The position numbers and the translations under genes were made by a program. From a virus, in the IMG/VR virus record IMGVR_UViG_3300039355_000083: a stretch of DNA of 64,000 nt. One strand, written 5' to 3'. The notes beneath the pieces were generated by a model. It was not told the DNA's origin. It searched no databases and was given only the letters and a program-made list of their open reading frames with translations. Positions 2,686 through 24,051 of the stretch are shown here, one piece after another. Every line of letters starts with the position of its first letter. Positions within the stretch are counted from its first letter, which is position 1.

Positions 2686-3177
2686 ATGTCTAAAAAGAAA
2701 CGAAGCACTATATCAAATTTTATATGCCCAGAATGTGGACTTGAGTTCCCTATCCCAAGAAAAATTGGGCAACAGAGAGAAAAGGGGCATATTAAAGATT
2801 TGTATTGTCCGATTTGTAATAAAATACAAAAATTTACAGAATATACATATAAGCAGTCTTATAAAACATTAGAAGGTGAAATAATAGAGGAAAAACCATT
2901 AACTGACTTTAAAATAATTATGGAGGATGGTCACTCAAAAGAAGAGACCATATCATATTTAAAAAATGGAGTTCTTGTTTTTGATAAAGAAGAATTTATT
3001 GAGAACTTTAATTCTTACATGATTGAATGGTGTTTTGACAGAAGGCGAATTGAAAAATTGAAGAAGATGATAGATACAGGGGTTCCAATTCGTAATTGGG
3101 GAATAGTTACTAAAAATGGTAAAACTTATTATATTAGATATACTTGTTTAGAAAGGGGTAAGGTGATTTTAAAATGA
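2686..3177 (+). CDS. zinc-ribbon protein
   Basis: 163 aa with 'CPECG' and 'CPICN' pairs; RBS AGGAGGAAG upstream. Confidence 0.5.
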   Translation: MSKKKRSTISNFICPECGLEFPIPRKIGQQREKGHIKDLYCPICNKIQKFTEYTYKQSYKTLEGEIIEEKPLTDFKIIMEDGHSKEETISYLKNGVLVFDKEEFIENFNSYMIEWCFDRRRIEKLKKMIDTGVPIRNWGIVTKNGKTYYIRYTCLERGKVILK

Positions 3178-4007
3178 GGTTAACAAAAGAAGAAGCCAGA
3201 GCATATAAGGGATATGCTCTAACTCCTAAGCAACTCATTGAGAAAGCAAAGAAATTTTATGATGATTTAACACCCGAAGAAAGAGATGAGGAATACATTG
3301 TCTATGGAAATAATATAAAATTTGAAAAAGTGGAGGTAGAAAGGCTTACTACTGGAGAATTTTATATGCGTTGTGTTAATGACATTGAAAAAAGATATGA
3401 AGAATTTAAAAATAGGGAACGTATTTACAATTCTTCAGCTGTAGCACCATATGATCCAAGATATAAAATGGATGATTTTACAGAATCAGAAAAAATGGTA
3501 AGTTTTCTATATTATTTAATGGACAATGGATTTTCTTTAGCCATATTATATCCTGAATATCCAATCGAAGTAATAGAAATGATTTTTTGGAGTATACCGG
3601 AAGTAAGAAAGACACCACAAGAAAGAGCAGCATCAAAAATAACAGAAGAATATACTAAGTATATAAAACCAGGAGAAAAAAATGTCGGAGGAGCAGAGCT
3701 TGTTAAAAGAAGAGCGAAAGCAAATCCACCACAGACCTCTTTGACTCCAGATGAAATTGCGAGTTTTGATCGTATGAGCGAAAAATGGCTAGTAAGATGG
3801 TGTAACTTTTCTACGAATTGGTTATGGGTAGCGCCATGTTTATTATTATGTATTGTGGTGAACAAAGGACTTATTTCAGCAATTGGATTACTTTTGTTTA
3901 TGGGGATTGGAGAGTGGTATTCATGGAAAGTCAAGGAATATTGTAGTGTGATACTGCCATGGTATCAACAAGCTGGAATTATGTTAGAGAGGAGAATGAA
4001 ATTATGA
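3174..4007 (+). CDS. hypothetical protein with C-terminal transmembrane segments
   Basis: 277 aa. The hydrophobic C-terminus 'WLWVAPCLLLCIVVNKGLISAIGLLLFMGI' predicts 2 TM helices. Start overlaps the previous stop (ATGA). Confidence 0.5.
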   Translation: MRLTKEEARAYKGYALTPKQLIEKAKKFYDDLTPEERDEEYIVYGNNIKFEKVEVERLTTGEFYMRCVNDIEKRYEEFKNRERIYNSSAVAPYDPRYKMDDFTESEKMVSFLYYLMDNGFSLAILYPEYPIEVIEMIFWSIPEVRKTPQERAASKITEEYTKYIKPGEKNVGGAELVKRRAKANPPQTSLTPDEIASFDRMSEKWLVRWCNFSTNWLWVAPCLLLCIVVNKGLISAIGLLLFMGIGEWYSWKVKEYCSVILPWYQQAGIMLERRMKL

Positions 4008-14151: not shown

Positions 14152-14898
14152 ATGAAAACATTTACAAAAAGAATTCTTTTACTTGCTTCGATACTCCTTA
14201 TTTGGAATATCACAGCAAAACACGTAAATCCCTTGTTCGTTCCGGAGCCAGTTACGGTATTTGATGATCTGATAGGCATGATACATACCGGACAGTTGAT
14301 TAAGGCAATTGAATATTCGTTTCTAAGAATAACTGCTGCTACATTTATATCTGGAGCAATAGCATTTCCTATAGCGATTCTGGTTTATAATTCCAGAATT
14401 GCTAAGGATATTCTTAATCCGATAATCAGTGTTATGCGATATATTCCGGTGACTGCATTTTATCCATTGCTTATTATGTGGTTCGGGATAGATGAAATGA
14501 TGAAAATTGTATTTTTGTTTATTGCAACATTCGTATATATGATGCCGTCAGTTGTATTATGCCTGGAGGAAGTGAACAACGATCTAATAGATACCGGACT
14601 TACAATTGGAATGAGCAAATTACAAACGATATGGAGAATCCAGATTCCGGCATCATTGCCAGGAGTATTAAATAGCTACATTATGATGTATGGAATTGGA
14701 TTTACATATATTGCAGTAGCTGAAACAATAAATGCTAAATATGGACTTGGATATATAATCCAGCAATCATCTTCCAGAGGAAGAACAGATTTAGTATTTA
14801 TGGCAATCATTATGATTATGATCATTAGTGTTATATTTGATTATGTGTCTAAATGGTTAGTAAGGAAGATTTTTAAATGGAGGTATATCAATGATTAA
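14152..14898 (+). CDS. ABC transporter permease (NitT/TauT, SsuC/TauC-like)
   Basis: 248 aa with about 6 predicted TM segments, BPD-transporter-like core, translationally coupled to the following ATPase. Confidence 0.7.
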
Positions 14899-15502
14899 AA
14901 TTCATGATTTATACACAGGATACAGTAGAGATAAACCACTTTTATCTGGATTTAATTACAATTTTGATAATAAGATCTATGGGATCCTTGGAGAATCTGG
15001 ATGTGGAAAGACAACTTTGCTAAGGACTGTTGCAGGATTGCTCAAACCGTTATCTGGAGAAATTATCATAGATAATAATCCGGTTACAAAAGCAAGTAAA
15101 AATGAAATATATATGATGCATCAGAACTATACTTCTTTTGATTGGTTAAATTGTCTTGACAATATACTAATTGCTAAAAAAGTTAAAGGCCATGTAGAAC
15201 CAGAAGATATAGAAGCAGCTAAGAAGATGCTTTATTTAGTTGGTCTGAATGGAAACGAAAATAAATATCCTAAGCAGCTGTCTGGAGGCATGAAACAACG
15301 GCTTGCGTTAGCCAGGACGTTATTTGCAAAACCAAAGATTCTTTTAATGGATGAACCATTGTCAGCACTGGATGCTGAGACACGAAGTAATATGCAATTG
15401 TTAATTATGGATTTACATAGGTTACTTGATAATACTGTGATCATGGTCACACACAGTGAATCAGAAGCAAAGATAATGTGTGATGAAATATTGAAATTTT
15501 AG
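14891..15502 (+). CDS. ABC transporter ATP-binding protein
   Basis: Walker A 'GESGCGKTT', ABC signature 'LSGGMKQR' and Walker B 'ILLMDEP'. Confidence 0.85.
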
Positions 15503-15514
15503 GAAGGAAATACG

Positions 15515-16048
15515 ATGGGAATTTTAAAAAACTTATTTGTGGAAGAAATACCGGATGAGACGCCTGATATTCCAGATATAGATACTGATTTTGACACAAC
15601 TGAGACTGACGTAGAGCTTGATTCAGTCAACACTGACACTTTGATTGATGATATTTACAGCCAGAATAATCTGGCAGATAAAACACAGTCAATTTTTAAA
15701 GTGGAAGAGTTAATAAAATCATTTCCAAAGGAAATGACGACAGAAACAAAAAGAAATTCAGTATTGGCAACACTTGGTGTATTTGGCTTGACAGTGACTG
15801 ATGTTGAGGCAGATGGAGAAAAAAGAGTTGATGTTTTAAGCGACATTCTCTCAAAGATTATTTGTGATTCTGAAGCTGTTGTTACTGAAAAAGAAAATGC
15901 TATTGAAGAACACAAAATGGAAATCGAGCGTCTGGAAAAGGAAATTGCTGATCAAAGAGCTGAAACAAAAACATCTGATGAAACTATTACTGCTGAAATT
16001 GACAGAATTAAAAATTTAATTAACTTTACTGTTGGAGGAAATGCATAA
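15515..16048 (+). CDS. acidic hypothetical protein
   Basis: 177 aa, highly acidic D/E/T-rich N-terminus with a coiled-coil C-terminus. Confidence 0.45.
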   Translation: MGILKNLFVEEIPDETPDIPDIDTDFDTTETDVELDSVNTDTLIDDIYSQNNLADKTQSIFKVEELIKSFPKEMTTETKRNSVLATLGVFGLTVTDVEADGEKRVDVLSDILSKIICDSEAVVTEKENAIEEHKMEIERLEKEIADQRAETKTSDETITAEIDRIKNLINFTVGGNA

Positions 16049-16785
16049 TGGAACTTGGTAAACTGATTTTTATTGTTGTAGTGGTTGTTATTGTATTGAT
16101 ACTGATTCTGTTTCCGGAAGCAAGAAAATTACTGTCTGGATTTACTAGATTATTTATCAAAGATATGGCAACCACACCAGAAGGAGCAGAGGCTATCTAT
16201 GAAGAAAAAATTGACCAGGCTCAGGAATCTTATAATAAAGCGGATAATGCATATAAGATTGCTGCTGGAAAATTAAGCAATGCACAGAAAGATCTCGATA
16301 GGAAAAGAAAAAGACTTATTAATGTTGAAGCTGAGTGTGAATCTCTTGTGAAAACAAATCAAATCGAACTTGCACAGTTAAAAGCAGAGGAAAGAGAAGA
16401 AATTCTTTCAGATATCCGCAGAGTTACCGGTTTGGTAAATGCCTATAAAGAAGCTACGGCCGCTGCAAAAGAGACACAGGAAAGGTGTGAAAAGAATCTT
16501 AGAAGTCTAAAGCGTGAAAGTAAAGAAGTTGTGGAGAATATGAAGGTAAAGAAGCAGCTTCAGGAAGTCTATGATGATATGGATGAACTGAAAAATGTCA
16601 CGGTAACAGATAAATTGCTTGATTCTGTTCGAGATAAAAACAGAGATCTGGATGCTATTGTGGAAGGATCTAAAGTAGTACACAATAATAAGATGTCTAC
16701 CAAACTTGAAAAGGCTGAAGCGGAAGCAAAAAAGAATAACAGCAATGATTATCTGAACAGCTTGAAAAAGAAATATAATAAATAA
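16048..16785 (+). CDS. membrane-anchored PspA/IM30-like coiled-coil protein
   Basis: N-terminal TM helix 'LIFIVVVVVIVLILILF', then an amphipathic start 'FTRLFIKDM...' and a long coiled coil laid out like PspA/Vipp1 (ESCRT-III-like). Confidence 0.4.
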   Translation: MELGKLIFIVVVVVIVLILILFPEARKLLSGFTRLFIKDMATTPEGAEAIYEEKIDQAQESYNKADNAYKIAAGKLSNAQKDLDRKRKRLINVEAECESLVKTNQIELAQLKAEEREEILSDIRRVTGLVNAYKEATAAAKETQERCEKNLRSLKRESKEVVENMKVKKQLQEVYDDMDELKNVTVTDKLLDSVRDKNRDLDAIVEGSKVVHNNKMSTKLEKAEAEAKKNNSNDYLNSLKKKYNK

Positions 16786-16796
16786 GGAGTAGTAAA

Positions 16797-17084
16797 ATGA
16801 AGAAAGCAAAAAGATTTAGATTAACTAAAGCAGCAAAAATTCTGATTATGGTTCTGATTGTAGCACTGCTTGGAGGAGGTATCTTTGCAGGAACACAGAC
16901 TGGAATGATTCAGACGAAGAAAGATAAATCAGTATCCGGTACTACTACATCAGAAACAGTCGCTAAAACAGAATCTACTTCAAATAATGAGGATGATGAC
17001 AAGAAAAACACTGTAAAGAAAGATGAAGCGAAAACTGCTGATGATAATGTTATTAATGTGTCATTAGATGAATGGATTGGTTAA
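16797..17084 (+). CDS. exon 1 of the substrate-binding lipoprotein/OmpA-fusion gene (signal anchor + linker)
   Basis: N-terminal TM/signal anchor 'ILIMVLIVALLGGGIFAG' followed by a T/S/D/K-rich linker. Ends '...DEWIG' directly at the proposed intron 5' splice site. Confidence 0.5.
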   Translation: MKKAKRFRLTKAAKILIMVLIVALLGGGIFAGTQTGMIQTKKDKSVSGTTTSETVAKTESTSNNEDDDKKNTVKKDEAKTADDNVINVSLDEWIG

Positions 17085-18319
17085 TTTCTAGCCCTTTTAC
17101 ATTGGTGACAATGTGATCGAACGCCTTTGAATTGCTGGAATTAAGGCTATACACGTAGCCACCCTAAAGCTTACTAAACTACAACATAATGATGAAATAC
17201 GCATAAGTGTGAATGTGGCGAAAGCAGAAAAAATTAGTAAGATGGCATAAGCTGAAATAAAAGCTTTTTCATTGAAATATGAGAAGGTGCTAAGTGCTGT
17301 AAGAATGGGGAATCAGCTTCCAAAATCCGAACAGGATAAGGTTCAACGAGTAAGAGCTTTTAAATTCGTTAAAGCCAGTGGAGGCGCATCTTATAAAAGA
17401 TGGTGATGTATTCTAATCTATATTGAAAAATATAGTGTTGTAACGTGTAAGGAGAATATAAAGAATTGGAGAAATATGTATACAAAATAGAGAATAACAT
17501 AAATCATAAGATTTATATAGGACAAACTAATAATTTAGAAAGACGTATTAAAGAGCATCGGCATGATAAACGCATGAATCATCCTATCTATAATGCAATA
17601 CATAAATATGGATGGGATAATTTTTCGGTAGAAACATTATATTTCGGAGAAGATTATAATACAAAAGAAAAGGAATATATTAAATTATATCGCAGTAATG
17701 AGAAAGAGTTCGGATATAATATTCAAAATGGTGGGCAAGATAGTTCTGGAGAAAATAATCCGCAAAGTAAGTTAACACAACAGCAGGTTGATTTATTGAT
17801 GAAAGATTTAAAAGAAACGAACGTTGAATTTGATAAGCTTGCCGAAAAGTATAATGTATCAATAAAAACTATTCGAAATGTTAATACCGGAATAGCTTGG
17901 AGAAAAAATGATATCACTTATCCTATCAGAGAACCTTTAATATGTCCATCTATAAATCATGAAAAAATTAAATTAATCAAAAAAATGTTACGAGATGGCT
18001 TTTATAGTATAGACTATATTGCTAGAATGTTTAAAGTAGAAAGATATGTAATTTTAAACATTAATAAAGGTGTTACATATTATGATGAAAACGATGAATA
18101 TCCTATCAGAGAATTAGGATTAACTCATGATGAATTAGAAGAAATTATTAAATTGTTAGAAGATCCTAGCATTCCTATGAAGTATATTGCTAAATTATAT
18201 GGTCGAGCTGTTACTCAGATTTATAGAATTAATAATGGTGGCAGTTGGCATAATCCAAATATAAAATATCCTATACGGAAATCAACAGTTCAGCGTAACG
18301 AACTGAATCAATAGTAATG
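17082..18319 (+). mobile_element. candidate group I intron carrying a GIY-YIG homing endonuclease ORF
   Basis: GC-enriched ~380-nt non-coding core (17085-17465) carrying group-I P/Q/R/S-like elements ('AATGGGGAATCAGC', 'AATCCGAACAGG', 'GTTCAACGAGTAAG', 'AAAAATATAGTG'). A P1 hairpin GGTTA/TAGCC pairs U17081 with G17091. A G at 18314 or 18319 gives an in-frame exon junction. Confidence 0.55.
17466..18314 (+). CDS. GIY-YIG homing endonuclease
   Basis: 'YVYKIENNINHKIYIGQTNNLERRIKEH' contains the GIY...YIG motif with the catalytic R/E. TTG start follows RBS AAGGAG. Confidence 0.8.
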   Translation: MEKYVYKIENNINHKIYIGQTNNLERRIKEHRHDKRMNHPIYNAIHKYGWDNFSVETLYFGEDYNTKEKEYIKLYRSNEKEFGYNIQNGGQDSSGENNPQSKLTQQQVDLLMKDLKETNVEFDKLAEKYNVSIKTIRNVNTGIAWRKNDITYPIREPLICPSINHEKIKLIKKMLRDGFYSIDYIARMFKVERYVILNINKGVTYYDENDEYPIRELGLTHDELEEIIKLLEDPSIPMKYIAKLYGRAVTQIYRINNGGSWHNPNIKYPIRKSTVQRNELNQ

Positions 18320-19663
18320 TGGAAATCCATTATTGACGCTAATGGCGGCTTAACAACTCAGTCAGGTTCCATCTATGATAAACTTGGCGTAAAAGTAAAT
18401 ATTAATGTTATTAACGACGCAACACAATCAAGTAATGCTCTGATTAAAGGAGATCTGAACGCTGCAGGTTATACAATCAACAGAACTGCATTCTTATCTA
18501 AGAAATTCACTGATGCCGGAAAAGAAGTGGTGATGCCGTATATTACAAATTACTCAAATGGTGGTGACGGTATTATTGCGAAGTCTTCTATTCAGAATGT
18601 AAATGATCTTGTAAATGCTAAAATTGGTGTACCAGAATTCTCTGAAGCTCAAACACTTGTAGTATGGTTTGTAAATAATTCTGATCTTTCTAATAAAGCC
18701 AAAGCAAAGATTATTGATAATCTTGTATTGTTCTCAACACCAGATGATGCAGCAAAAGCATTTTTTGCCGGTCAGATTGATGTTGCAGCAACCTGGGAAC
18801 CATACCTGACTCAGGCAAAGAATATGACAGACGCACATGTATTATTTAGCACTGCAAGTTCTTCAAATCTTGTTATGGATGGAATTCTGTTTGATAAGAA
18901 ATTTGCAGAAGCACATGCAGATGTAGTGGAGAAATTTATCCAGGGATCTCTGGAAGCTGCAGATATGTATAATACAGAATTTAATGCAATCCGTGAAGTA
19001 ATGCCTATGTTCAATACTGCATCAGATGAAGATATTGTAGCAAATACGGAGTCTGCAAAACTGACAACATGGAAAGATAATTTAGATCTGTTAAATGGAA
19101 CTGCAAAGACAATTTATTCAGATATGTGTAACGTATGGACATCAATTGGTGAGTCTGTAAATGCTGATCTTGTTAATAGTATTTTTGATGATACATATAT
19201 TAATGCTATTTCAGATAAATTTAGTGCAACGAAAGTGTCTAATACAAATACTGTAAAGGTTACAGAGGATAATAAAAAGGAAATTCAGGATACTGAAGCT
19301 TTATTACAGGGTAAAGCATCTGTTACATTTATTCAGAATACGGCAAAATTCTCTGATTCTGCTGCAGCATCTAAAGAACTTAATAAGTTTATTGACATTG
19401 CAAAGGTACTTGACGGTGCAATCATTGAAATTGCAGGAAATACAGACCCTAATCCGGAATCAGATCCTGAAGACGAGTATAATCAGAAGTTGTCTTTACA
19501 AAGAGCAGAAGCTGTTAAAAACTATTTTGTTATGAATGGAATTTCTAACGGACGTATTGTAGTAGTTGGAAATGGATCCAGCAATCCTGTTGTTGATAAT
19601 GACACTGATGAACATCGCGCAATGAATAGACGTACTGATGTATCATTTAAGATCATTGAGTAA
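18317..19663 (+). CDS. exon 2: NMT1/SsuA-type substrate-binding domain fused to a C-terminal OmpA-like peptidoglycan-binding domain
   Basis: SBP-like motifs ('GQIDVAATWEPYL') and no N-terminal signal peptide of its own. OmpA C-domain signature 'IAGNTDP...LSLQRAEAVKNYF...NRRTDV'. Confidence 0.65.
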   Translation: MWKSIIDANGGLTTQSGSIYDKLGVKVNINVINDATQSSNALIKGDLNAAGYTINRTAFLSKKFTDAGKEVVMPYITNYSNGGDGIIAKSSIQNVNDLVNAKIGVPEFSEAQTLVVWFVNNSDLSNKAKAKIIDNLVLFSTPDDAAKAFFAGQIDVAATWEPYLTQAKNMTDAHVLFSTASSSNLVMDGILFDKKFAEAHADVVEKFIQGSLEAADMYNTEFNAIREVMPMFNTASDEDIVANTESAKLTTWKDNLDLLNGTAKTIYSDMCNVWTSIGESVNADLVNSIFDDTYINAISDKFSATKVSNTNTVKVTEDNKKEIQDTEALLQGKASVTFIQNTAKFSDSAAASKELNKFIDIAKVLDGAIIEIAGNTDPNPESDPEDEYNQKLSLQRAEAVKNYFVMNGISNGRIVVVGNGSSNPVVDNDTDEHRAMNRRTDVSFKIIE

Positions 19664-19777
19664 GGAGTAATTATGGTTGCTTTAAATATAGAAACATTTG
19701 TTGTATGCCTTGTTATTGCTTTTCTGGCAGGTATTCTGGTTACAAAAATTAAATTAAAGAAATAAAGGAGAAAAATT

Positions 19778-20299
19778 ATGGGATTTACATTATTTGGAGA
19801 AAAATATAAATATGAAGTAGACAGTATTAATATTGGGATTTTTTGTCCAGATGGGACATTATTAATAGTTTTAAAACTTAAAGATGGTACATATAAATCA
19901 ATTGATGTTAATCTTGGAGCAGAAAAATATAAGTCATTATGCAAAGAGAATAACATTACAAACAATGTGCCGGTTCTTGTTACACAAGAACATGTTAATA
20001 AATTAGATAAAGAAATAAAACCTAAGTACAAATGGGGAGACTGGAAAGAAGGTTACACTTTTTTTATGGATCCATTTTCTCGTAGAGAAAAACTATTAGT
20101 ATATAATGTTAGAACTAATGGTAAGAGAGTGCAGGTAGAATTCGACGGTGTAAAAGCTATGGCTTCTTGTAATATTGAAGCAGGAGATCAATTTGATTAT
20201 AAGTTTGGTAGGGAACTGGCAGAGCGAAGATTGATTGCGAAATTGATTGAGAAACGTGCAAATTCATATTATATAAGCAAAATCAACAAAACAAATTAA
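19778..20299 (+). CDS. hypothetical protein
   Basis: 173 aa ORF with RBS AAGGAG. Confidence 0.5.
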   Translation: MGFTLFGEKYKYEVDSINIGIFCPDGTLLIVLKLKDGTYKSIDVNLGAEKYKSLCKENNITNNVPVLVTQEHVNKLDKEIKPKYKWGDWKEGYTFFMDPFSRREKLLVYNVRTNGKRVQVEFDGVKAMASCNIEAGDQFDYKFGRELAERRLIAKLIEKRANSYYISKINKTN

Positions 20300-20438: not shown

Positions 20439-20523
20439 TAGCGGTATGATGAAATTGGCTAGACATAATAGACTTTGACTCTATTGAGCAGTAGCTCGTG
20501 TGGGTTCGAATCCCACTACCGCC
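20439..20523 (+). tRNA. type-II-shaped tRNA (long variable arm) with anticodon UUG
   Basis: Folds by hand: acceptor AGCGGTA/TACCGCC (A1.C72 mismatch), 3-bp D stem, anticodon stem ATAGA/TCTAT with loop CTTTGAC (U33, anticodon TTG, A37), 15-nt variable arm GAGC-AGTA-GCTC, T arm GTGGG-TTCGAAT-CCCAC. No encoded CCA. Confidence 0.5.
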
Positions 20524-20603
20524 GTTTGGCAAGTATTTTATACAAATATACTCCAGCCGAATTGCAGAGAAATATAATTTAATTATACAAAAAGGAGATA
20601 AAA

Positions 20604-21889: not shown

Positions 21890-21969
21890 GCGGATATGAC
21901 GGAACTGGCAGACGTAGAAGGCTCAAACCCTTCGGAGAAATCGTGTGGGTTCGAATCCCACTATCCGTA
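21890..21969 (+). tRNA. tRNA-Leu (anticodon CAA)
   Basis: Acceptor GCGGATA/TATCCGT, U8, 3-bp D stem ACG/CGT with a GG-containing D loop, anticodon stem GAAGG/CCTTC with loop CTCAAAC, 11-nt variable region, T arm GTGGG-TTCGAAT-CCCAC. Confidence 0.6.
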
Positions 21970-22412: not shown

Positions 22413-22486
22413 GGAAACTTAGCTCAGTTGGTTAGAGCAACCGGCTCATAACCGGTCGGTCCTGGGTTCGAGTCCCAGAGTTTCCA
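22413..22486 (+). tRNA. tRNA-Met (anticodon CAU; elongator Met or lysidine-modified Ile2)
   Basis: Canonical cloverleaf: acceptor GGAAACT/AGTTTCC, D arm GCTC-AGTTGGTTA-GAGC, anticodon stem ACCGG/CCGGT with loop CTCATAA, T arm CTGGG-TTCGAGT-CCCAG. Confidence 0.85.
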
Positions 22487-23981: not shown

Positions 23982-24051
23982 TGACATATAGTCTAACGGA
24001 AAGAACGTGGCTTTTTAAGCTGAAATATTGGTTCGAATCCAATTGTGTCAT
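23982..24051 (+). tRNA. degenerate tRNA-like element (possible tRNA-Lys UUU remnant)
   Basis: Good acceptor (TGACATA/TGTGTCA) and T arm (ATTGG-TTCGAAT-CCAAT), but the anticodon stem is weak (2 Watson-Crick + 2 wobble pairs) and the variable loop is 3 nt. The best loop reads TTTTTAA (anticodon TTT). Confidence 0.3.

Follow-up and report, generated by a model that had tools for sequence, protein, structure and literature searches.

Here we describe positions 17082 to 18319 of a 64,000-nucleotide stretch of viral DNA (IMG/VR record IMGVR_UViG_3300039355_000083), referred to here as the window. Our data indicate that this segment of 1238 nt is very probably a mobile group I intron of a Twort-like phage lineage (subgroup IA-like). 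The insertion separates a Gly codon from a Trp codon in a phage gene whose product is an SsuA/NMT1-type binding protein with a membrane anchor and an OmpA-like C-terminus. The intron, its endonuclease gene and both exons lie on the plus strand. This reading is carried by the boundaries of the insertion, by a fold with covariation, and by the family membership of both the intron and its endonuclease. An earlier note, made from the letters alone, had proposed a group I intron at this locus; a complete core with covariation, and covariance models built only from relatives that match the window, bear the proposal out.

We found that 17082-18319 is a clean insertion into one gene. The uninterrupted loci L004 to L006 read GGATTGGT|TGGAAATCC, and the window has the same sequence with 1238 nt added. 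The resulting junction, 17081|18320, is identical to that of uninterrupted alleles at both the protein and the DNA level. A boundary ambiguity of one base (T) is settled by the group I rule that the exon ends in U and the intron in G. The earlier note had offered two junctions: the one after 17081, with G18319 as the intron end, is that of the uninterrupted alleles, whereas the other (17082/18314, '...IGLMWKS...') is contradicted by all homologues, none of which has the extra Leu-Met. Among 40 viral-contig alleles, 31 lack the intron and contain one continuous gene, while nine carry an intron at the same codon boundary (five with a 1238-nt insert, 99.8-100% identical, and four with a diverged 1246-nt insert), and none has a two-gene arrangement.

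A later pattern scan added two diverged variants, which occupy the same Gly|Trp boundary of more distant alleles; they are referred to here as C (L094, 1241 nt) and D (L089/L092, 1241 nt), the window copy being A and L071/L045 being B. In all four, exon 1 ends in GGT, the insert begins with an in-frame TAA or TAG and ends in G, and the GIY-YIG open reading frame (ORF) runs to within a few bases of the 3' splice site. Identity among the variants is 72-76% in the ribozyme and 47-60% in the endonuclease, which roughly tracks the host-allele divergence of 51-100%.

The ORFs of the locus are those described in the earlier note: a membrane anchor with a linker (16797-17084), a GIY-YIG protein (17466-18314), and a binding domain with no signal peptide of its own (18317-19663). 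The first ORF encodes 95 amino acids, with a transmembrane (TM) segment and a low-complexity linker that is acidic or rich in Thr/Ser; its last residues are ...NVINVSLDEWIG. The third encodes 448 amino acids with an NMT1/THI5-like (NMT1/SsuA-like) binding domain and, at its C-terminus, an OmpA-like peptidoglycan-binding domain (63.6 bits). Exon 1 (16797..17081, last base U17081) thus holds the TM anchor, the variable linker and the first conserved residues (...NVSLDEWIG), and exon 2 (18320..19663) the remainder of the binding domain followed by the OmpA-like domain. When the conceptually spliced protein was used as a query, it retrieved dozens of continuous proteins of 532-548 amino acids (93-95% identity, 100% coverage), whose junction reads ...SLDEWIG-WKSIIDANGG..., together with a few truncated 'MWKSII...' proteins of 448 and 424 amino acids (P0060, P0083). 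The two exons are also contiguous on the PHROG 25518 profile, exon 1 covering positions 1-77 and exon 2 positions 78-526. Exon 2 exceeds the Pfam NMT1 cut-off (24.6 versus 20.5 bits), and the host gene stays below that of TIGR01728 SsuA_fam (65.2 versus 163.5 bits). Since the binding-domain match of the Pfam and NCBIfam profiles does not clearly extend across the junction, starting just 2 residues into exon 1, the claim of one gene rests on the full-length homologues and PHROG 25518. Where the host gene has homologues in bacterial assemblies, these are all from Lachnospiraceae.

The splice sites have the features of a group I intron. The first intron codon is an in-frame UAA stop (17082..17084), TAA or TAG in all four same-site variants, and such a stop just after the 5' junction is described as typical for group I introns (PMC3073962, PMC3984707). 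The P1 hairpin that the earlier note had drawn, with its U17081.G17091 wobble at the 5' splice site, is a helix of five pairs (GGU|UA / UAGCC; 17079..17093, pairing 17079-83 with 17089-93) and is invariant in the four variants. The guide strand AUUUCUA (17084..17090) pairs with 18320-18326 (UGGAAAU), the opening 7 bases of exon 2, to give P10; in variant D a guide AAGUUA faces an exon 2 UGGCUU, so that the P10 guide covaries with the exon. Comparison with intron-less DNA fixes omega-G, the terminal intron base at the 3' splice site, at 18319. The ATG at 18317 coincides with the final three bases of the intron and is no genuine start. The predicted ligated-exon junction is ...GGAUUGGU|UGGAAAUCC....

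We found that the first ~355 nt of the intron fold as a complete group I core (P1-P9, with the P3/P7 pseudoknot) of the Twort-like phage family. The fold was obtained by homology and then checked, and all 94 modelled pairs form in the window sequence. The core lies largely in a 381-nt stretch (17085-17465) that is without a long ORF, as the earlier note had observed of a GC-enriched segment of ~380 nt; its GC content of 0.37-0.38 is raised only relative to the AT-rich endonuclease ORF (0.24-0.32), the exons being at 0.34-0.38. Starting from the 5' end, P2 (17099..17114) is capped by a GUGA loop of the GNRA type, and the 5' strand of P3 (CGCCUUU, 17122..17128) pairs with 17380-17386 (GGAGGCG) to form a pseudoknot with P7. 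The P element AAUUGCUGG (17130-17138) contains the 5' strand of P4 (17134..17138), whose partner (17313-17317) lies within the Q element AAUCAGC (17311-17317). An extra hairpin between P4 and P5 (GGCUA/UAGCC, 17145..17160) shows compensatory changes; it is not present in the 12 cultured-phage relatives. The idea that it is unique to this lineage was rejected, as hairpins of varied sequence occupy this position in many metagenomic introns, which makes it a peripheral element that recurs. P5, with its long extension (P5a-e), occupies 17162..17310, and a tetraloop-receptor-like motif within the extension, UAAGC (17248-17252) with GCUAAG (17289-17294), was assigned by inspection only.

The 3' half of the core begins with P6 and P6a (17320..17341), which covary and are paired in 100% of cells. 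The earlier note had picked out two segments resembling core elements: GTTCAACGAGTAAG is indeed the R element and includes the 5' strand of P7, while AATCCGAACAGG is the P6a hairpin and not Q. P7, the guanosine-binding helix, pairs GAGUA (17348..17352) with UAUUC (17409-17413), and its third pair is C-G in the relatives, G-C in L019 and three other copies, and G.U (17350/17411) in the window and L020. Between P7 and the 3' strand of P3 the window lineage has one covarying hairpin, compared to two in its closest relatives. This hairpin, P7.1 (17356..17375), holds UUCGUU (17365-17370) in its loop, and its stem covaries in variant D. P8 (17387..17402) and P9 (17418..17435, with a GAAA loop) complete the core. 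A structure drawn by hand on MAFFT alignments of the 3' halves (A3, A4) was dropped because P7.1, P7.2, P8 and inner P9 fell into inconsistent registers; it was replaced by a single-sequence seed model followed by model-guided realignment.

The fold is supported by covariation at two depths. Across 15 family members and the 94 pairs, 86.3% of cells pair, compared to 36-41% with slid partners; both sides have changed in 63 pairs, compared to 11-33 in slid controls; the covariation score is 0.378 versus 0.09 or less; and none of 500 shuffles matches the observed pairing values. In these 15 sequences P4 is paired in 100% of cells and three of its pairs are changed on both sides. For the four same-site variants, whose alignment we considered safe, 97.2% of cells pair (35-43% when slid) and 40 of the 94 pairs are changed on both sides (0-6 when slid), with P3 paired in 97% of cells and two of its pairs changed on both sides. 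The window and variant B differ at 34 pairs, of which 25 are compensatory, six are one-sided yet still paired, and three are broken.

Family membership was supported by covariance models, in a manner that depends on the model. The earlier note had proposed a search with Rfam RF00028, which gives no match at the gathering score (50 bits) in the whole window and nothing relevant at E<=10 on 1.5 kb, while models built from relatives match strongly. RF00028 does match the sister intron of variant B, at the identical site, over the full model length (41.9 bits, E=1.7e-9), and likewise the homologous Enterocloster-phage intron L003 (93.6 bits, full length). It misses all three tandem Twort-type introns in L001 even at E<=1, which indicates poor sensitivity for this family, and we therefore read the miss in the window as a limit of sensitivity rather than as absence. 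A model built from the Rfam-validated Enterocloster intron alone (R1; L003, 3' half, 36 bp) matches window 17302-17437 with 70 bits (E=4.5e-16), and the next match in the 64 kb has E=0.23. After rebuilding from 21 matches in relatives, the model (R2) scores 76.1 bits (E=1.6e-11) on the same positions and 78-85 bits on the sister copies. R2 has no match in the intron-less loci, and neither model has another significant match in the 64 kb.

The 3' part of the intron is occupied by the endonuclease ORF (17466..18314, 282 amino acids), which has a TTG start and a Shine-Dalgarno sequence AAGGAG at 17449-17454. A non-AUG start and an ORF 3' end overlapping structured RNA are described as typical (PMC3073962, PMC3984707). 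The product matches Pfam GIY-YIG PF01541 (34.1 bits; cut-off 22.6) and TIGR01453 'group I intron endonuclease' (69.9 bits; cut-off 56.05), contains an HTH_7 domain, matches PHROG homing-endonuclease families, and aligns with the I-TevI catalytic domain (1mk0/1ln0) across the GIY, YIG, Arg, Glu and Asn motif regions. The enzyme would be expected to cleave the intron-less allele, for which the patchy distribution of the intron (9 of 40 alleles) and an intron-linked patch in exon 1 are indirect evidence. Its stop codon in the window is a TAG 5 nt before the junction. In three other copies, L071 (variant B), L094 (C) and L089 (D), no stop codon precedes the 3' splice site and the ORF runs through into exon 2 in another frame; another variant B copy, L045, has a TAA 8 nt before the junction.

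The same 1238-nt insert, identically placed, is present in assemblies from different samples: at least five contigs in IMG/VR, one ENA scaffold and one Logan contig. All five 1238-nt intron-plus alleles have the same exon 1 (100% identity), to which uninterrupted alleles are just 73% identical even though their exon 2 matches at 97-100%. The divergence is confined to a patch bounded at about 16852-17051 (50-69% identity, with flanks at 96-100%), which is perfectly linked to the presence of the intron (5/5 versus 0/8). I-TevI cuts 23-25 nt upstream of its insertion site and remains bound on the exon II side, with a bias of co-conversion towards exon I (PMC2988022). By analogy, the patch matches this exon-I bias and could be a co-conversion tract of homing.

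The intron's 3' end is remote: the endonuclease ORF lies between P9 and the 3' splice site, which is why the latter is located ~880 nt past P9. A hairpin inside the end of the ORF (18289..18307) has a covarying stem of 5 bp and an invariant loop, CGUAACGAA, and ends 12 nt before omega-G in all four variants. The stems read UUCAG/CUGAA, UCGAG/CUCGG, CCGAG/CUCGG and CCAAG/CUUGG, with 100% of cells paired and three of the five pairs changed on both sides. The three codons of the loop are identical in all four variants, compared to 26% of conserved-residue codons (chance about 0.02). Part of the loop (18297-18302, AACGAA) shows complementarity of 5-6 nt to UUCGUU in the P7.1 loop, with a chance of 0.006-0.03 per variant. 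The T4 sunY intron is reportedly dependent on a long-range pairing between a peripheral element of the core and the 3'-terminal domain (Michel et al. 1992, Genes Dev). By likeness to sunY, we put forward a hypothetical docking between the 3'-hairpin loop and the P7.1 loop; compared to sunY, the pairing in the window intron is predicted only. By inspection, the loop-loop docking could not be extended to ORF-less relatives. A terminator-like match near the intron turned out to be this 3' hairpin read on the wrong strand, and in a scan for promoters and terminators the sites were no more numerous than in shuffled sequence.

These features suggest how the intron might work. A ribosome translating exon 1 would halt at the UAA that opens the intron, and the first ~355 nt would adopt the fold of the catalytic core. 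An exogenous guanosine, bound in P7, would attack after U17081, displayed in P1 as a U.G wobble. The guide strand would then pair with exon 2 (P10), omega-G18319 would move into the G site, and the exons would be joined to give ...DEWIG-WKSII..., while the conserved 3'-terminal hairpin may dock the remote 3' end on the core through the P7.1 loop, a step that is hypothetical. Translated from its TTG start, the GIY-YIG enzyme would cut intron-less alleles of co-infecting phages, and repair would copy the intron in. Taken jointly, the data allow a more speculative reading, which we think unlikely: that the intron is a long-term resident of this gene family rather than a recent parasite, in keeping with variants whose divergence roughly tracks that of the host alleles, and that splicing is conditional on finished transcription of the endonuclease ORF, by kissing of the P7.1 and 3'-hairpin loops, so that the intron might act as a timing or condition switch for a transporter component, in analogy to the light-dependent splicing of the psbA intron.

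Several observations weigh against a mobile and active intron. On the short window core RF00028 reaches only 19.3 bits (E=0.01) against its gathering score of 50, and its alignment is partly wrong. P1 contains just three exon base pairs, a single hairpin stands where typical IA introns carry both P7.1 and P7.2, and P7 of the window has a G.U pair where most sister copies have G-C. The docking pairs never vary and therefore lie beyond the covariation test, and their support is modest. The divergent exon-1 patch falls in the hypervariable linker, and ordinary recombination or shared descent could also account for it. Splicing of 17082-18319 is itself something that we infer. We considered whether the intron is genuine but impaired in splicing in the window copy, in which case this phage would carry the gene as a pseudogene or express it only conditionally. 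The G.U pair, found in the window and L020 against G-C in four other copies, would fit such impairment, as would an RF00028 score lower than that of variant B. However, G.U counts as a standard pair, and the window sequence forms every one of the 94 modelled pairs; moreover, both exons are intact, with matches of 99-100% identity in uninterrupted alleles, and an identical copy is found in the independent contig L020. An impaired copy is very unlikely.

A different explanation is a gene that is truly split, in which a free-standing GIY-YIG cassette with a decayed ribozyme remnant separates two halves translated independently, the second from ATG 18317, comparable to the mobE-split nrdA of phage Aeh1. 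That ATG lies 2 nt after the endonuclease stop, and gene callers accordingly give a 448-amino-acid ORF (P0060, P0083). It is composed of the last three intron bases, though, without a preceding Shine-Dalgarno sequence, and variant D, which ends in AAAG, lacks this ATG. A product of exon 2 only would be without the membrane anchor and the conserved ...SLDEWIG segment. Furthermore, a decayed remnant is at odds with the strong structural selection on the ribozyme, seen in 25 compensatory versus three disruptive changes and 97% pairing over four variants. We consider a split gene highly improbable. The probability that an assembly chimera joined unrelated sequence into the gene is close to nil, as it is excluded by independent assemblies with the same insert at the same position in different samples and by three further diverged variants at the site.

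With a mobile group I intron as the preferred reading, we compared it to known introns. Searching with the non-coding part (blastn) matched unannotated stretches in Staphylococcus, Enterococcus, Enterocloster, Clostridium, Lactococcus and Brochothrix phages. In Enterococcus and Brochothrix phages these related introns occur within split nrdE genes; others lie in a PolIII-alpha gene (Lactococcus) or at a tape-measure gene (Thomasclavelia), precede an I-TevI-like ORF in Enterocloster phages, or belong to a Clostridium botulinum phage whose GenBank record annotates a 'Group I catalytic intron'. In Staphylococcus Twortvirinae three in tandem adjoin the tail-tube gene, like those of Twort orf142, which encodes the tail tube protein (PMC11878797). 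The window intron shares with the orf142 introns of Twort, Kayvirus and Silviavirus (IA2) the P, Q and R/S elements and the conserved P5 extension (75-80% over about 100 nt by blastn), as well as helices with covariation and GNRA-capped P2 and P9; a crystal structure of the Twort ribozyme is available (PMC3984707). The Staphylococcus introns compared here differ in being ORF-less and shorter, without the P4/P5 hairpin, with another layout of P7.1-P9, and in a structural host gene. The closest cultured-phage relative of the window intron is that of Enterocloster phage CB457P1 (OP172753; L003 2930-3261), with 78% nucleotide identity over core blocks. That intron likewise has a ribozyme core followed by an I-TevI-like GIY-YIG ORF in its 3' part, but it contains both P7.1 and P7.2, has no P4/P5 hairpin, and interrupts another, unannotated gene.

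Among well-studied systems, the T4 nrdD (sunY) intron with I-TevII also has a GIY-YIG ORF (PMC2988022) downstream of the core and a remote 3' splice site. The T4 td intron with I-TevI shares the catalytic domain, the in-frame stop after the 5' junction, an ORF whose 3' end lies over structured RNA, and co-conversion biased to exon I, which is putative for the window intron (PMC3073962, PMC2988022), but the I-TevI ORF lies in the P6 loop and the enzyme has a zinc finger and NUMOD3 where the window enzyme has HTH repeats (HTH_7). Similarly, the group I intron of cyanophage S-PM2 lies in psbA, an auxiliary gene that does not serve replication, and is widespread in metagenomic alleles (PMC5931967); unlike the window intron it has no internal endonuclease, being served by the free-standing F-CphI, and belongs to another intron lineage and host. 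Since group I introns of phages are found mostly in genes for nucleotide and DNA metabolism and in terminase genes (PMC11878797, PMC3984707), a transporter-type accessory host gene is atypical. The earlier note's remark that such a host gene is uncommon is thus fair, although psbA provides a precedent. Group I introns are abundant in gut jumbo phages (PMC12880540), and our literature search found no report of an intron in this host gene family.

The intron represents a small clade of at least four variants within a well-known class and is not a new kind of element, and the known workings of group I introns are unchanged by these results. It does widen the host-gene range of the Twort-like lineage, which had comprised replication and structural genes, by an accessory gene of transporter type; the phages concerned have Lachnospiraceae relatives in bacterial assemblies. 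Gene callers break the interrupted gene into a 95-amino-acid orphan and a 448-amino-acid 'MWKS...' protein, and the truncated clusters (P0060, P0083) have entered public protein sets. Introns of this sort are probably under-counted in gut-phage genomes, given that the standard Rfam model does not pick up the window intron. With four diverged variants at a single site, covariation in P10 and in the 3'-hairpin stems, and a mosaic biased to exon I, the locus offers a compact system in which to study homing, co-conversion and how a remote 3' splice site is recognised.

Further introns and intron-like sequences were observed among the loci collected. Related introns with the P4/P5 hairpin occur in other large ORFs (L098, L104, L138, L079), including a 709-amino-acid tail-fibre-like protein and ORFs of 170-393 amino acids, which suggests a wide host-gene range of this intron lineage in gut phages. 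In L001 (Staphylococcus phage vB_SauM-V1SA22, 2592-3625) the tandem introns are annotated as several tiny 'hypothetical proteins' on the opposite strand. The same nrdE intron has an ORF in its P8 region in Enterococcus phage Carl (L002, about 3000-3480) and none in phiEF17H (L066, about 1500-1765), forming a natural ORF-plus/ORF-minus pair. Approximately 35 loci (L070, L072, L073, L077, L083 and about 20 others) have a 35-nt insertion (TGGT[TG]AC[GA]ACTACCGTAATGG...) between a P-like element and CCTAAAGC; the R element was not found there by a simple pattern and the upstream 'ORF' looks non-genic, and these loci may represent a different structured RNA or a divergent intron class.

The interrupted gene is the last member of a phage-borne, ABC-importer-like cassette (window 14152-19663). 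Upstream of it are a TauC/SsuC-like permease (14152-14898), an ABC ATPase (14891-15502) and two genes of no known kind (15515-16048 and 16048-16785, the second weakly PspA-like), an order that is the same in the uninterrupted loci L004 to L006. A second strongly divergent patch relative to locus L030 (window 19690-20100, 13-75% identity) is unrelated to the intron; it spans a small ORF (19666-19766) and the beginning of the ORF 19778-20299. Further downstream, four tRNA genes on the plus strand were found with Rfam at 20440-20524, 21890-21969, 22413-22486 and 23982-24051.

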